Under the pieces are notes generated by a model. That model searched no databases. It saw only the letters and a program-made list of their open reading frames with translations, and had not been told where the DNA came from. From positions 32,792 to 96,791 of the IMG/VR virus record IMGVR_UViG_3300021139_001840: 64,000 bases of DNA. One strand, written 5' to 3'. Made by a program: the position numbers and the translations under genes. Every line of letters starts with the position of its first letter. Within the stretch, counting starts at the first letter, position 1. The DNA is from a virus. This document shows positions 10,171 through 57,113 of this stretch, one piece after another.

Positions 10171-10950
10171 ATGTCAGATCATTATCAAACACTAAATGTT
10201 CCCCGCGGAGCAACGCAAGAAGAAATTAAAAAGGCTTATCGCAAATTAGCCGGGCAATATCATCCAGATAAAGGTGGTGATAAAGTAAAGTTTCAGGAAA
10301 TTCAAGCCGCATACTCTGTATTAGGTGATGATCAAAAAAGAGCACAATACGATAATCCTGGACAAAATATTCATTTTGAATTTGGCAGTCCCGGAGGTTT
10401 TGATTTTAGTTCCATTTTTAGTATGTTTGGACAGCAAGTTCATCAACAATCACATCGTCAAAGTCATACACGCATGAGTTTGTGGGTAACACTACAAGAT
10501 GTCGCACAAGGCGGAAAACGCCCAGTTACTGTTGGTACTAGCCACGGTACTATGAATATTGAAATTGAAATTCCTTTGGGCATTGAAGATGGGGATAATG
10601 TTCAGTATCCAAAATTGGGGCCCGGCGGTACAGATTTAATTGTTAATTTCCGCATACATCCTAATCCTAAATGGGCACGAGCTGGGTTACATTTAACCAC
10701 TGAACATTCTATTAGTATTTGGGACTGTATGGTTGGTGGCACAACAGAAATACGTGATATATTAGGCAACCAAATTAATCTTACCATTCCTGCACTTACA
10801 CAGCCTGGCAGTTTATTGCGTTTAAAGGGCAGAGGGTTATCATCGCGTCAAGGAATCACAGGTGATTTATTGGTTAGAATTCAAGCCAAAATGCCATCAA
10901 ATATTAGCACAGAATTATCCGAACTTATTAAACAAGAACAAAAAAAATAG
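10171..10950 (+). CDS. dnaJ: DnaJ/CbpA-like co-chaperone
   Basis: J domain with HPD motif plus C-terminal DnaJ domain, no zinc finger. Confidence 0.9.
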   Translation: MSDHYQTLNVPRGATQEEIKKAYRKLAGQYHPDKGGDKVKFQEIQAAYSVLGDDQKRAQYDNPGQNIHFEFGSPGGFDFSSIFSMFGQQVHQQSHRQSHTRMSLWVTLQDVAQGGKRPVTVGTSHGTMNIEIEIPLGIEDGDNVQYPKLGPGGTDLIVNFRIHPNPKWARAGLHLTTEHSISIWDCMVGGTTEIRDILGNQINLTIPALTQPGSLLRLKGRGLSSRQGITGDLLVRIQAKMPSNISTELSELIKQEQKK

Positions 10951-11013
10951 CCATAACAGTTGTGTTTGCGACAAAATTGCTATATACTATTACAGTACCA
11001 AGCAAAGGAAAAC

Positions 11014-13293
11014 ATGCAGAATAATAAAGAAATTGAACAAATTGTTGCGCAGGCTGTCAAAATAGCTAAAGATCTTCAACACGAATACGTGTTAACCGAA
11101 CATGTTTTATTGGCGCTAATACGTCATGCTCCATTTCAGACTGTGATGGAAAATTTTGGTATCAATGTCAATATGTTAGACATGGAACTTGATGCTTATT
11201 TGCAAAGTTTAACAAATTTAGTCACTGACAAAAAAGATCACCAGCCTAGAAAAACAAATGCGTTGGAACGCTGTTTTAATCGAGCAATGACACAAGTTCT
11301 TTTTACTGGTCGTCGCTCTATGACTACTGGAGATTTATATCTTGCTATTATGGCCGAAACCAATAGCCATGCTCAATATTTCCTTTTAAAATATGGTGTT
11401 AAAAAAGTTGAGTTTTATGATTATTGGCAACAAAATTATAAACATGATGACATTAAACTTACAGGCACACAAGCGGATGAAATATTAAATGAATACTGTG
11501 TAAATTTGACTCGTTTGGCAACAGAAGATAGACTAGAGCCAATGATTGGACGCAGTGAAGAATTAGATCAAATGATTACAGCACTGGCAAGGCGTTTTAA
11601 AGCCAATGTATTAATGGTAGGCGATCCTGGCGTGGGCAAAACTGCTATTGTAGAAGGACTTGCTCAAGAAATTATTGCTAATCGTGTTCCTAAATTCCTT
11701 ATTGGACACGAAGTATGGTCGTTAGAAATTGGATCATTGCTTGCTGGCAGCAAATACCGCGGTGAATTTGAAGAAAAATTTAAACAAGTTATTGGTGCGC
11801 TTGAAGCTAAGAAAAATTGTATTTTGTTTATTGACGAAGCACATACAATGAAAGGTGCTGGTGCTAGTTCACAAAGTACTTTAGACTTTGCCAATATGTT
11901 GAAGCCAAGCATTACTAAAGGCACACTCAAAGTTGTAGCGTCAACAACATGGGAAGAATATTACGAATCATTTGAAAAAGATCGTGCTTTAATGCGTCGT
12001 TTCCATCGTGTGGCTATTGATGAGCCAAGTCCAGAAGTTACGGAACAAATTCTTATTGGATTAAGCCCACGTTTAGAATTATTTCACAATGTTATGATTG
12101 AAACAGAAGCCATTAAAACTGCTGTGGATTTAAGCGGCCGTTATATACATGACCGTAAGAATCCGGATAAGTCAATTGACTTATTAGATGGTGCTTGTGC
12201 TCGTGAACGTGTTAAAGATGCAGGCAATGTGCCTATTACTAAAGATTTAATTATGGCTCAGTTAAGTCGTGTAACTGAAGTGCCAATAGATAGACTACAA
12301 AACGAACGTTCTGCCAGCATAGTAGAGTTAGAAAGCAATATTAAAGAAAAACTATATGGGCAAGACGAAGCAGTAGATTCAGTACTTGAACGTGTCTACA
12401 TTAACTTTTCAGGCATTGGCAACGATTCTCGCCCCATTGCTTCATTTTTGTTCTTGGGTCCAACAGGTACTGGTAAAACGGAACTTGCTAAATTGCTGGC
12501 CAAGAATTTAGATATGCAATTATTAAAGTATGACATGAGTGAATATCAAGAAAAACATACTGTTAGCTCATTAATTGGTGCTCCGCCTGGTTATGTAGGA
12601 TTTGAAGATGGCAATGTCGGAGGTGGAAAACTTATTTCGGACATTTCAAAGAATCCATATTCAATTATTTTGTTTGACGAAATTGAAAAAGCACATCCAG
12701 ATGTTATCAACATTATGTTACAAATGCTTGATGAAGCTCGCATTACATCAGCCAATGGAAAAACAGTTAATCTCAAAAATACCATTATCATTATGACATC
12801 AAATTTAGGATCTCGTGATAATGAAAATAATAATATTGGGTTTGGGCAAGACTTAGAAAAAACTGGATCAGAAGAAAAAGCAATGAAAAACTTCTTCAAG
12901 CCTGAACTACGCAATCGTATTGACCAAATATGTAAATTCAAAAAACTTGATACATTGGCCATTAAGAAAGTTGTACTTAAATTTGTTGAGCAATTACAAA
13001 CAAGTTTAACTACAAAAAATATCAAACTTAATTTATCCGAATCAGTTATTGACATGTTAGCTGAAAAAGGATATGACAGTAAAATGGGGGCTCGTCCTTT
13101 GAATCGCAAAATTGATGAACTTATTCGTGTACCATTAAGTAAGAAAATTTTATTCGAACGGTTAACTGACTGTGTAATTAATGCTATAATGGTAGATGAT
13201 AAAATTGATTTTACAATTATACCAACAACTACATTTCCAGCTTTAGATAGTTCCGGAATAATTGTGCTGAATAATGAATCCCCTAACATTTAA
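11014..13293 (+). CDS. clpA: ClpA-like Hsp100 AAA+ unfoldase
   Basis: Clp N domain, two AAA modules (GDPGVGKT; GPTGTGKT), IGF ClpP-docking loop, GARPL; likely start ATG 11014. Confidence 0.9.
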   Translation: MQNNKEIEQIVAQAVKIAKDLQHEYVLTEHVLLALIRHAPFQTVMENFGINVNMLDMELDAYLQSLTNLVTDKKDHQPRKTNALERCFNRAMTQVLFTGRRSMTTGDLYLAIMAETNSHAQYFLLKYGVKKVEFYDYWQQNYKHDDIKLTGTQADEILNEYCVNLTRLATEDRLEPMIGRSEELDQMITALARRFKANVLMVGDPGVGKTAIVEGLAQEIIANRVPKFLIGHEVWSLEIGSLLAGSKYRGEFEEKFKQVIGALEAKKNCILFIDEAHTMKGAGASSQSTLDFANMLKPSITKGTLKVVASTTWEEYYESFEKDRALMRRFHRVAIDEPSPEVTEQILIGLSPRLELFHNVMIETEAIKTAVDLSGRYIHDRKNPDKSIDLLDGACARERVKDAGNVPITKDLIMAQLSRVTEVPIDRLQNERSASIVELESNIKEKLYGQDEAVDSVLERVYINFSGIGNDSRPIASFLFLGPTGTGKTELAKLLAKNLDMQLLKYDMSEYQEKHTVSSLIGAPPGYVGFEDGNVGGGKLISDISKNPYSIILFDEIEKAHPDVINIMLQMLDEARITSANGKTVNLKNTIIIMTSNLGSRDNENNNIGFGQDLEKTGSEEKAMKNFFKPELRNRIDQICKFKKLDTLAIKKVVLKFVEQLQTSLTTKNIKLNLSESVIDMLAEKGYDSKMGARPLNRKIDELIRVPLSKKILFERLTDCVINAIMVDDKIDFTIIPTTTFPALDSSGIIVLNNESPNI

Positions 13294-51918: not shown

Positions 51919-52099
51919 AGATATATTTTGGATTACAGTAACCTTTGGTATTTTGATAGCTGTGTTGGCTTTGGCTTTTTGGCCATCAGATAAAAATCAT
52001 GTTACATTAAAATATGATTGCCGTATGTTAATGGGCGGTTGGCATCCTGATTTCCCAGCCAAGGTAATAGAAGAATGTAGGCAAAGGAGTAGTAAATGA
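51911..52099 (+). CDS. small membrane protein
   Basis: N-terminal TM, two Cys. Confidence 0.6.
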   Translation: MAKDIFWITVTFGILIAVLALAFWPSDKNHVTLKYDCRMLMGGWHPDFPAKVIEECRQRSSK

Positions 52100-52935
52100 C
52101 CCAACGAATATTAATAATGGGATTACCGGGCTCAGGTAAAACAACATTAGCAGTAGCTCTTAAAAAGTATTTAGAAGAAAATGGCGAGATTAGTTATGCT
52201 CGTGCTTTACAAGAGCATATTGGCGATTACAAGTGTCAAGTTAATTGGTTTAATGCTGATGACATCCGCCGCAAGTACAACGACTGGGACTTCAGTAATG
52301 ATGGACGCATTCGTCAAAGTATCCGTATGTTCCAGTTCAGTATGGAAGCTGGTGGGGACTATGTTATTTGTGACTTCGTTGCGCCCTTGGTAGAGATGCG
52401 TAATAACTTCAAAGCTGACTGGACTATTTGGGTAGATACCATTCGAGAAGGTCGATACGAAGATACCAACAAGGTATTTGTTGAACCAGAACAATACGAT
52501 TTCCGCATTCCGGAGCAGGACTGTGAAAAGTGGGCAGAGTTTATCGGTGAGCATATTATTGCCAATCGCCGACGTCCTACATTTGATTGGAAGAAGGAAA
52601 CTGTACAGATGCTAGGCCGCTGGCAACCTTGGCACGAAGGACATCGTGCTTTATTTGAAAAATTAATTGCTCGCACAGGACAAGTTGTTATTCAAGTACG
52701 TGATGTACAAGGATGGCAAGGAAGTAATCCATTTGAAGTAGAAAAAGTTAAAAACTTTATCAAACGTGATTTAGATCCTATCTATCAAGGACAATACGAA
52801 ATACAAGTAGTACCAAATATTGTACATATTGGGTGGGGTCGTGGGGTAGGATATACATCTGGAGAAGAAACTTTTGATGAATCTATAACATCAATTAGTG
52901 CTACCAAAATACGCAAGGAGTTAGGCCTTGAGTGA
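52096..52935 (+). CDS. adenylylsulfate-kinase-like P-loop domain fused to HIGH-type nucleotidyltransferase
   Basis: MGLPGSGKTT, NADDIR, DFS..GR; LGRWQPWHEGH, ISATKIR. Confidence 0.75.
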   Translation: MTQRILIMGLPGSGKTTLAVALKKYLEENGEISYARALQEHIGDYKCQVNWFNADDIRRKYNDWDFSNDGRIRQSIRMFQFSMEAGGDYVICDFVAPLVEMRNNFKADWTIWVDTIREGRYEDTNKVFVEPEQYDFRIPEQDCEKWAEFIGEHIIANRRRPTFDWKKETVQMLGRWQPWHEGHRALFEKLIARTGQVVIQVRDVQGWQGSNPFEVEKVKNFIKRDLDPIYQGQYEIQVVPNIVHIGWGRGVGYTSGEETFDESITSISATKIRKELGLE

Positions 52936-55852: not shown

Positions 55853-56056
55853 ATGGCAACAGGTAAAGTAAAGTGGTTTAATGATGCAAAAGGGTTTGGA
55901 TTTATTACCCCCGATGCTGGTGGTGAGGAATTGTTTGCACATTTTTCCGCAATTAGCACAAATGGTTTTAAGAGTTTAAAAGAGAATCAAGCGGTAACAT
56001 TCGATGTAGTGGCAGGCCCTAAAGGCAAGCAAGCATCAAATATTCTTCCGCTGTAA
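55853..56056 (+). CDS. cspA: cold-shock protein
   Basis: [15 protein letters not shown] (RNP1), LFAHFSAI (RNP2). Confidence 0.97.
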
Positions 56057-56106
56057 AGTATAGATCTAAGTAAAAAACAAGAATACTTAGACAAAGGGTT
56101 TAGTAG

Positions 56107-56500
56107 TGGCAGGCTTAAAAAGAGTATGCCACAAAACAGAAATTCGTTGAAGGTAGAAGTATAGCGATCAAGACTCGGGTGCAACTCCCGAATGGTCCAC
56201 CATAAGCATATTGCATAAAACCGGCTCACTCATCCGAGCGCAGGCAACCCAGTATGCTTTTGATGGGCCATAATTAGAATCGATTGGCGCTAAAGGGCTA
56301 CTGGAGGATCGGCAATGTAGAAGCCGTTAGGACTGGGGAAGCCTGGTCGGAGAAACAAAACTCGTAAATGCAAACGCAAATACAGGCGAAGTAACTGTTT
56401 CAGGTAAGAACGTTAAGTTCTCTGCTCGTACAGCACAACGCCAAACTTTAGCAGTTTAATCACTGCTTTGAGCAACTATGCTTCGAAACAGGAAATAGTC
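56107..56500 (+). ncRNA. ssrA: circularly permuted (two-piece) tmRNA
   Basis: Acceptor 3' piece GAC-TCGGG-TGCAACT-CCCGA-ATGGTCC-ACCA (to 56202) precedes 5' piece GGGCCAT (56265) with G3.U70; tag frame 56370-56459; outer ends approximate. Confidence 0.85.
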
Positions 56501-56501
56501 G

Positions 56502-56528
56502 AAAACGGCACTTAATTGTGCCGTTTTT
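56502..56528 (+). terminator. intrinsic terminator after tmRNA
   Basis: AAAACGGCAC/GTGCCGTTTT hairpin, T run. Confidence 0.85.
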
Positions 56529-56624
56529 GTTGAATATTGCGGTGTTTTGTGTTATAATTTACTGAGTTACAGGAAATAACACTAAATATTATTCTCCGTA
56601 GTACAACTTTTAAAAGGAATCAAA

Positions 56625-57113
56625 ATGAAAAAAGCAATCGTAGCATTAGCATTAGTAGCATTTACTGGTCTTGCATCAGCTGTTGAAGTTGGTGCGTTGT
56701 GGGATTGGGGTCACGGCACAAACGGTGGCACACGTCAAGCTGGCGGTGTATCTGTTGGTGACAAATTAGGCTCTTTAGATCCAAGTCTTGCTAAAGTTGG
56801 TGTTCAAGCAACTGCTGAACGTTCGACATCAGGTAGCCTTAATGTAAATCGTTATACAGCAAAAGCAAGTTATGATGTTATTACATTTGCTAACATTACA
56901 ACTAATGTTCACGCTGGTTTAGCATACATCGATCCGCAAAGCACCAGTTCTAAACTTGGTAACGGTACTTCTGCGTTAGTTGGATTTGGTTTTGCTTACC
57001 CAGTATACAAACAGGTTAGTTTGACTGCTGACTATGACTACCAAAAAAGCAACGGTGCCACTAAACCATTTAATGGCAACGTAATTACTACAGGTGTTAA
57101 GTACGCATTCTAA
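56625..57113 (+). CDS. outer-membrane beta-barrel protein (OmpA/Ail-like)
   Basis: Signal peptide ending ASA, amphipathic strands, C-terminal GVKYAF. Confidence 0.8.
   Translation: MKKAIVALALVAFTGLASAVEVGALWDWGHGTNGGTRQAGGVSVGDKLGSLDPSLAKVGVQATAERSTSGSLNVNRYTAKASYDVITFANITTNVHAGLAYIDPQSTSSKLGNGTSALVGFGFAYPVYKQVSLTADYDYQKSNGATKPFNGNVITTGVKYAF

Follow-up and report, generated by a model that had tools for sequence, protein, structure and literature searches.

A circularly permuted two-piece tmRNA gene with a 29-residue tag in an uncultured jumbo phage

Circularly permuted genes for two-piece transfer-messenger RNA (tmRNA) are an established category in phages and are not in themselves new (PMC9004378). 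They have been described in the Methylophilales phage Melnitz, in pelagimyophages and in some cyanophages, and Buchholz et al. 2022 counted 53 two-piece forms, mostly aquatic, among 133 unique phage tmRNAs identified by ARAGORN (PMC9004378). Huge phages with tmRNA, sometimes accompanied by SmpB, were reported in 2020 (PMC7162821), and the 2025 release of the tmRNA database lists 79 phage sequences, the commonest tmRNA tag length being 10 residues (PMC11915505). Here we describe a permuted tmRNA gene (ssrA) with a 29-codon tag in a 64,000-nucleotide stretch, referred to below as the window, that comprises bases 32792-96791 of the 96,791-base IMG/VR virus record IMGVR_UViG_3300021139_001840 (CheckV completeness 28%).

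The gene encodes a genuine two-piece tmRNA that is most likely functional, and we put the probability that the window holds a functional, circularly permuted ssrA of an uncultured jumbo myophage at about 85%. The evidence comes from covariance models, from compensatory change across related viral loci and from coding constraint on the tag.

Recognition and structure of the permuted gene

The Rfam 15 model of permuted tmRNA (RF04321) is matched over its full length (model positions 1-213 of 213) at 56142-56402 with 66.3 bits against a gathering score of 47 bits and an E value of 1.5e-10 over the whole window. Run with a relaxed threshold (-ps), ARAGORN reports a permuted tmRNA spanning 56106-56550, whose tag is ANANTGEVTVSGKNVKFSARTAQRQTLAV. 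The order of parts is that of a permuted gene, as the T arm and the acceptor 3' strand with its CCA lie upstream of the acceptor 5' strand (Table 1), and the 7-bp acceptor stem carries the alanine identity elements, a G3.U70 pair and discriminator A73. The minimum free energy (MFE) fold of 56138-56305 recovers the T arm, both segments of helix 2 and an acceptor stem running on into the stem closing the spacer, and the fold of 56303-56530 (z = -3.8) shows a 12-bp terminator, the hairpin with the stop codon and, ahead of the tag, two further hairpins. The original prediction, made from the letters of the window without database searches, had named a permuted two-piece tmRNA gene, and RF04321, ARAGORN -ps, the MFE fold and compensatory changes agree on this identity; every element that it listed is present where it was placed or within one base.

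Relatives were collected from IMG/VR by pattern searches with the exact 28-mer of the T arm and acceptor strand (9 viral contigs matched), a degenerate 30-mer spanning the first ten tag codons (19 contigs) and the 18-mer of the stop hairpin (56 contigs), giving 63 independent loci with the long tag, in 59 of which ARAGORN -ps finds a permuted tmRNA. The RNA structure is under selection across these relatives. The acceptor stem occurs in at least ten versions (5' strands GGGCCAT, GGGCCTG, GGGCCAG, GGGCCCG, GGGGATG, GGGGGTG, GGGGGAG, GGGGCAG, GGGTCCG and GGGGAAG, each with its complement), all fully paired and all with G3.U70, and pairs 4-7 covary. Nine versions of the T stem are paired at 5/5 positions, and the 56331-48 hairpin is paired at 7/7 in nine sequence versions. 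RNAalifold on 40 distinct 3' modules finds changes on both sides with pairing kept at 4/5 pairs of the 56470-83 hairpin and at all 4 scored pairs of the terminator. Covariation is reported for cleanly aligning helices only, as some rows of the MAFFT alignment are out of register in helix 2 and the spacer stem. The spacer itself holds no open reading frame, and its length and sequence vary freely among relatives with identical flanks. The stem of the hairpin just upstream of the gene shows a compensatory change in one relative (L014, GAGGTA/TGCCTC) and is 5/6 paired in another (L017); it could be the end of the transcript of the upstream cold-shock gene (csp), a processing site or an element of the promoter region.

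Some members of the family, the window copy among them, have a variant elbow in the tRNA-like domain. The canonical tmRNA elbow, in which a U54-U55-C56-R-A T loop contacts a GG in the D-loop analogue, is absent from the window copy, which has the T loop UGCAACU (G55) instead of the usual UUCRANY and, in its D-loop analogue AAUUAGAAUCGA, AG in place of the GG seen in relatives and in the beta consensus. We tabulated 33 distinct tRNA-domain arrangements from the ARAGORN calls, 31 of which parse correctly. Among these 31 the T loop at position 55 and the D-loop analogue change together without exception: T loops starting with TTC accompany GG (20/20 arrangements) and those starting with TGC or GGC accompany AG (11/11). 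Because residue 55 of tRNA is met by G18 while C56 is paired with G19, the window elbow resembles a compensated variant, altered at the G18-55 contact and unaltered at G19-C56, rather than a loss. The tabulation is consistent co-variation and not statistical proof, since the G55 forms could go back to a single event or to a few. The variant probably explains the low ARAGORN and Rfam scores of the window copy. Odder T loops, GGCAGTG and GGCGGAG, occur in some family members.

Several smaller observations concern the ends of the two pieces and individual loci. The CCA is encoded (tail ACCA) in some family members only; others have ACCG, ACCT, or A followed by AA (L012, L039, L045), and would therefore need the host CCA-adding enzyme. 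At the 5' end of the acceptor piece lies a sense-strand motif, AAACAGAAAUUCG, that resembles the conserved stretch at 56484-56500, and the acceptor piece showed no convincing pairing of its 5' tail with the conserved tail at the 3' end of the coding piece. In one relative (L011:411-910, minus strand) the acceptor halves belong to two family types (GGGGAAG versus CGGATCC) and pair at 4/7 positions, suggesting either an assembly chimera or a recombinant, which should then be inactive. Another record (G004:C1:86913-86957, locus L035) has a weak, partial second RF04321 match of 18.3 bits to the T-arm and acceptor part about 3 kb from the real gene.

Table 1. Parts of the permuted tmRNA gene and its immediate upstream context (window coordinates)
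Feature	Position	Strand	Basis
Cold-shock-domain protein gene (csp), directly upstream; context, not part of the RNA	55853..56056	+	Pfam CSD, E 2e-28
Hairpin GTGGCA/TGCCAC with 15-nt loop, just upstream of the tmRNA	56106..56132	+	Sequence; ARAGORN call starts here
Acceptor piece	56142..56202	+	RF04321 alignment, ARAGORN, MFE fold, T-stem/acceptor covariation; 5' end (56142) inferred from start of RF04321 match
Helix 2, 5' strands: GGTAG; TAGCG-ATCAA	56152-56; 56162-71	+	ARAGORN, MFE fold
Helix 2, 3' strands: TTGG-CGCTA; second strand	56284-92; 56298-302	+	ARAGORN, MFE fold
T arm: TCGGG/CCCGA; loop UGCAACU, G at position 55	56175-91 (stem 56175-79/56187-91; loop 56180-86)	+	
Acceptor 3' strand ATGGTCC; A73; encoded CCA	56192-98; 56199; 56200-02	+	
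Intervening spacer, 62 nt	56203..56264	+	Closed by AAGCATA 56204-10/TATGCTT 56253-59, extending acceptor stem
Coding piece, 5' part	56265..56369	+	RF04321, ARAGORN, folds
Acceptor 5' strand GGGCCAT	56265-71	+	7-bp stem with ATGGTCC; G3.U70
D-loop analogue AAUUAGAAUCGA	56272-83	+	AG where relatives have GG
Pseudoknot-1 region hairpins: CGGC/GCCG; second hairpin	56310-26; 56331-48	+	Folds, covariation
Resume context CGUAAAU, then resume codon GCA	GCA at 56370	+	
Tag frame, 29 codons ANANTGEVTVSGKNVKFSARTAQRQTLAV; stop TAA	56370..56459 (stop 56457-59)	+	ARAGORN; conserved frame in relatives
Coding piece, 3' part	56450..56528	+	Folds, RNAalifold on relatives
Stop-codon hairpin AGCAGT/ACTGCT, TAA in loop	56450-55/56462-67	+	
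Hairpin GAGCA/TGCTT	56470-83	+	Fold, covariation
Conserved unpaired stretch YCGWAACAGRAAA/YCGWAACAGRAAAWAG (window and relatives), between last hairpin and terminator	56484-56500	+	
Intrinsic terminator CGGCAC/GTGCCG; U run	56506-23; 56524-28	+	

The long tag, its lineage and its exchange between phages

The tag of 29 codons, noted from the outset as about three times the usual length, is real and conserved across relatives. The 63 viral loci hold 41 distinct nucleotide versions that encode 35 distinct peptides, of 29 residues in 34 versions and 28 in 7, the only indel being one of 3 nt. Frame 0 is open in 41/41 versions, while stops interrupt frame +1 in 41 and frame +2 in 32. Over codons 6-17 (GEVTVSGKxVKF) the proportion of silent differences (pS) is 0.23 and that of replacement differences (pN) 0.06, a pN/pS of 0.26, and this core is under purifying selection. 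Over codons 18-26 replacement sites vary about as fast as silent sites, with the versions SARTAQRQ-S/T/P, RTLAAKGQS, SARSVKAES and SARSVKRQS and a form one codon shorter. The end is [L/F]AV in 41/41 versions, Leu-Ala-Val in the window, and the canonical ClpX-type C-terminal Ala-Ala-COOH occurs in none of the 41. The tag, which is net basic, looks bipartite, with a selected core (GEVTVSGKxVKF) joined by a freely varying linker of 8-9 residues to a fixed hydrophobic end.

In the searches run, the tag family is restricted to viral contigs. The degenerate tag pattern has 0 matches in 185,579 bacterial and archaeal species (one genome each). The stop-hairpin 18-mer has 17 matches in bacterial genomes against 17.3 expected by chance, none with the tag upstream, and these were rejected as noise. 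The bacterial-genome searches used exact patterns and could miss divergent bacterial relatives. BLASTN of 56000-56600 against 50,697 INPHARED phage records (65-70% sensitivity) gave no similarity and identified no cultured relative.

The carrier is an uncultured phage of about 340 kb. The original placement of the gene in a phage, already suggested by its IMG/VR virus contig, stands because the DNA polymerase of the record is nearest to those of jumbo myophages and long-tag relatives lie on contigs of 317-344 kb. The closest polymerases, at 42-50% identity, belong to jumbo myophages of 350-490 kb, namely Sinorhizobium phage Phosso, Agrobacterium phage Atu_ph07 and the Escherichia phage 121Q/PBECO4 group. 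The long-tag contigs include one of 344 kb that has direct terminal repeats and is rated 100% complete, one of 340 kb rated 98% and one of 317 kb, and several span 230-344 kb.

Six long-tag relatives (L011, L012, L018, L021, L024 and L026) match the betaproteobacterial model RF01850 over its full length (positions 1-331) with 108-133 bits against a cut-off of 84, and a relative with a window-type tRNA-like domain and a short tag (L032) scores 90.9 bits. Because all of these exceed the cut-off, the family can be assigned to the beta type of two-piece tmRNA, with the window copy a divergent member; its close relative L034 scores 33.8 bits on RF01850. In L012 the distance from tag codon 5 to the terminator is 119 nt compared to 67 in the RF01850 model, roughly 17 codons longer. 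A cyanobacterial origin, considered because NVKFSAR resembles cyanobacterial tags, was dropped as unsupported, as no usable report of such tags emerged from the literature and the relatives fit the beta model.

The pattern of similarity along the gene indicates that exchange of the tRNA-like part has been independent of exchange of the tag part. The loci L003/L008, L004/L005 and L006 share 97-100% identity with the window over the acceptor piece and 85-88% over the 5' part of the coding piece, and have short tags (ANDELFAVAA, ANASNDEVFALAA and ANDELFYQERLAA) and 3' modules unrelated to that of the window. Conversely, L016, L023 and L015 share 88-94% identity over the tag and 3' module and only about 64% over the tRNA-like parts. 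Twenty such discordant pairs were found, and the modules switch at the universally conserved resume region.

Partners, proposed mechanism and alternative readings

A profile search for SmpB (PF01668), in which positive controls matched, found none in the 28%-complete record or in the records of nine relatives, three of them rated 98%, 100% and 100% complete by CheckV. Since neither the record nor the near-complete relatives encode SmpB, that of the host must be used, and the proposal that the phage supplies its own ribosome rescue falls: host SmpB, alanyl-tRNA synthetase (AlaRS), RNase P and EF-Tu are all required.

Clp proteins are encoded in the window, and ClpX, ClpP and ClpS in most of the near-complete relatives. 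In the window a DnaJ gene (10171-10950) is followed directly by a gene (10960-13293) for a 777-residue ClpA-type double AAA+ protein that can be aligned with E. coli ClpA along its entire length, retains the ClpP-docking loop in the form IGF and is 72-80% identical in the relatives G001, G002 and G003. ClpX, ClpP (one or two copies) and ClpS are encoded by G001 (98% complete), G006 (100%) and G007 (89%), with the ClpS gene about 2-4 kb downstream of clpX, and ClpX and ClpP by G010 (45%). Four phage ClpX proteins (L038:1477-2685 of G001, L102, L103 and L104) keep the pore-1 GYVG and the IGF loop. Opposite E. coli H230 they have V, S, T or Q (RKH loop, RK kept) and opposite T199 they have T, A, S or S; both E. 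coli residues are among six critical for reading Ala-Ala-COOH (PMC7652416). These altered tag-reading residues fit a co-adapted reader. A requirement of the long tag for phage ClpXP is weakened by G008, the 235,812-base record of locus L069 (CheckV 100%), which has the long tag and in which no ClpX zinc finger, ClpP or SmpB was found; because this record is complete without ClpX or ClpP, phage ClpXP cannot be required. No ClpX or ClpP was found in the window's own record, which is 28% complete.

From the anatomy, covariation and coding constraint described above we infer how the RNA might be processed, charged and used. One precursor would be transcribed from a putative promoter just upstream or by read-through from csp, ending at the terminator (56506-28). 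A consensus scan found no promoter for the tmRNA; the only same-strand sigma-70-like site lies downstream, at 56530-58, and probably serves the next gene. Host RNase P would cut before G56265 and 3' processing would stop at the CCA ending at 56202, so that the 62-nt spacer would be discarded, and the resulting acceptor piece (~60 nt) and coding piece (~260 nt) would be held together by the 7-bp acceptor stem and helix 2. Host AlaRS would charge the RNA with alanine through G3.U70 and A73, host SmpB and EF-Tu would bring it to stalled ribosomes, and translation would resume at GCA 56370, adding Ala plus 29 residues. The tag would be read by a host protease or adaptor or, where present, by phage ClpX, ClpP, ClpS or ClpA-like proteins.

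Several points weigh against a functional tmRNA whose tag is a proteolysis signal. ARAGORN at its default threshold calls no tmRNA in the window. Of the older lineage-specific Rfam models only the alphaproteobacterial RF01849 is listed for the window; it reaches 41.1 bits against a cut-off of 50 and aligns at model positions 80-179 of 355, the tRNA-like core only. RF01850 does not appear, one lower-scoring overlapping clan match being hidden. The covariance support that had been anticipated came from RF04321 and not from the alpha or beta lineage models, and ARAGORN recovered the exact predicted tag with -ps and not by default. Between helix 2 and the tag no convincing pairing for pseudoknot 1 was found, the region being filled by two covarying hairpins, and in the absence of U55 and of GG in the D-loop analogue the binding of host SmpB is assumed. 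Part of the invariance of the last tag codons can be put down to the RNA hairpin around the stop codon, where a change of L to F (TTA to TTC) is matched on the opposite strand, and the same codons lay within one of the search patterns, the stop-hairpin 18-mer; because they form a hairpin strand and were a search pattern, the fixed end cannot be read as a signal at the protein level alone. ClpX of E. coli relies mainly on the terminal Ala-Ala, and its Michaelis constant (KM) rises when the last Ala is changed (PMC7652416, PMC10862746), and by this comparison an Ala-Val end would be expected to bind an E. coli-type ClpX more weakly. Since default ARAGORN settings miss the window copy, such genes are likely under-annotated in viral metagenomes.

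As to what the tag does, the odds are roughly even that it is a proteolysis signal with altered reader specificity, one adapted to readers other than the canonical ClpX Ala-Ala pocket, and the word degron is itself a guess. The re-routing of tagged products that was first suggested is likewise conjectural: the Ala-Val end differs from the Ala-Ala read by E. coli ClpX (PMC7652416), yet a complete relative with this tag has no ClpX or ClpP of its own. It is doubtful that the long tag forms a private degradation code, read mainly by phage proteins (a ClpX whose tag pocket is altered, ClpP, ClpS, a ClpA-like unfoldase or a putative adaptor), in which case products rescued by the phage tmRNA would be handled apart from those tagged by the host tmRNA. 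The four relatives with ClpX and ClpP (three with ClpS), the IGF loop of the window ClpA-type protein, the departure of the phage ClpX proteins from H230 and mostly also from T199, and the lack of any tag-bearing match in the bacterial genomes searched speak for such a code; the complete G008, with a tag of the same family and without the ClpX zinc finger and ClpP, and the lack of ClpX and ClpP in the window's partial record speak against it, and sibling phages with short LAA or VAA tags are too fragmentary for a comparison of co-occurrence. A rescue that frees stalled ribosomes without destroying their products, the Ala-Val tag being a poor degron or serving another purpose and host proteases being spared, is likewise rather unlikely. 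Such a rescue would fit an Ala-Ala end in 0/41 versions, the reliance of E. coli ClpX on that end, and a net basic tag where the usual ones are acidic or neutral, but the selected 12-residue core and fixed hydrophobic C-terminus suggest recognition by something, and a short neutral tag would suffice, two-residue tags being known (PMC11915505).

That the RNA mainly titrates host SmpB or displaces the host tmRNA, disabling host quality control, is very unlikely. The phage RNA must compete for host SmpB because no phage SmpB was found, and a phage tmRNA form without a coding sequence (DS6A) inhibited the endogenous tmRNA in E. coli (reported in PMC11915505), yet the frame is intact and under coding selection in 41/41 versions, which would be superfluous in a pure decoy. 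Fragments of ssrA are common in temperate phages (PMC9004378), and a non-functional relic or integration-site fragment of a host ssrA was therefore weighed as well; it is effectively refuted by the conservation pattern, as both pieces and the tag are complete, compensatory change is extensive and coding constraint holds over 63 loci, the carriers are jumbo phages with tRNA arrays, and the tag module is in no bacterial genome searched.

A further proposal, quite unlikely as a whole, is that a large lineage of jumbo phages uses an orthogonal tagging code. In it a tag of 28-29 residues confined to viral contigs, with a conserved, possibly beta-hairpin-forming core and an Ala-Val end, would be read by phage Clp components that differ from E. 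coli ClpX at the tag-reading residues, or by a putative phage adaptor; the tag module would pass from phage to phage independently of the tRNA-like module, which would be swapped to suit the SmpB, AlaRS and RNase P of different hosts. The tmRNAs of phages are commonly seen as parts borrowed from their hosts, and three results argue for more. The diversification of the message half into a tag family that, in the searches run, is confined to viral contigs and has a selected core suggests that phages specify the fate of proteins from stalled ribosomes during infection, the independent exchange of modules is a natural experiment on which tmRNA parts must match the host, and the paired change of T loop and D-loop analogue amounts to a naturally compensated tRNA elbow that lends itself to tests of SmpB and ribosome binding.

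Genomic context and comparison with known systems

The window also encodes a family-B DNA polymerase, a clamp-loader subunit, PhoH, DnaJ, the ClpA-type ATPase, GTP cyclohydrolase I and ten tRNAs, with tRNA genes flanking the tmRNA gene on both sides. A cold-shock-domain gene precedes the tmRNA in 13/57 relatives, and in some of these (for example L021 and L040) the acceptor piece directly adjoins the stop codon of that gene; because this synteny is kept in only 13/57, it was dropped as a defining feature. Directly downstream, at 56625-57113, lies a gene for a small, signal-peptide-bearing protein resembling an outer-membrane beta-barrel (Pfam OMP_b-brl, weak and below cut-off), with its own sigma-70-like promoter at 56530-58. 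Elsewhere in the window (52096-52935) a 279-residue P-loop kinase-like protein has an N-terminus like that of adenosine 5'-phosphosulfate (APS) kinase, and its nearest phage relatives, at 34-38% identity, are in Xylella, Xanthomonas and Stenotrophomonas siphophages.

The literature searched holds no description of the 29-residue tag family, the mosaic exchange or the elbow variant. The closest described system is the betaproteobacterial two-piece tmRNA (RF01850), which shares with the window gene the order of acceptor piece, spacer and coding piece and the resume context UAAAUGCNAACG, followed by a UUCG-type terminator. The window copy differs in falling under the cut-off of that model, in its variant elbow and in having two hairpins where the beta model has one. 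The consensus tag of RF01850 begins ANDE/D, and short tags with an AA end are found in sibling phages that have the tRNA-like domain of the window. The tmRNAs of Melnitz and the pelagimyophages are alike in being permuted ssrA in large myophages together with tRNA genes. In contrast, their carriers are T4-like phages of about 140 kb and their tmRNAs alpha-type, whereas the carriers of the long tag are jumbo phages of about 230-344 kb with a beta-type tmRNA and a tag of 28-29 residues ending in Ala-Val; unlike the Melnitz and pelagimyophage system, the window has no riboswitch match in an Rfam scan.

The E. coli tag AANDENYALAA, read by ClpXP, SspB and ClpA, is the reference for tag function. 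In the proposed mechanism the window tag would resemble it in being added by trans-translation and in combining an upstream conserved element with a hydrophobic C-terminal tripeptide and its free carboxylate. It is, however, three times longer, net basic and ends in Val rather than Ala, and there is no sequence similarity between the two beyond the first AN. A precedent for long tags evolving jointly with a switch of protease is reportedly provided by the work of Gur and Sauer in 2008, in which the ssrA tags of Mycoplasma and Mesoplasma, of about 27 residues, are said to be read by Lon. The pair of mf-Lon and its tag is used as a tool (bioRxiv 10.1101/2022.12.20.521030). These long tags belong to one-piece bacterial tmRNAs and are unrelated in sequence to the window tag, which is part of a two-piece phage tmRNA.

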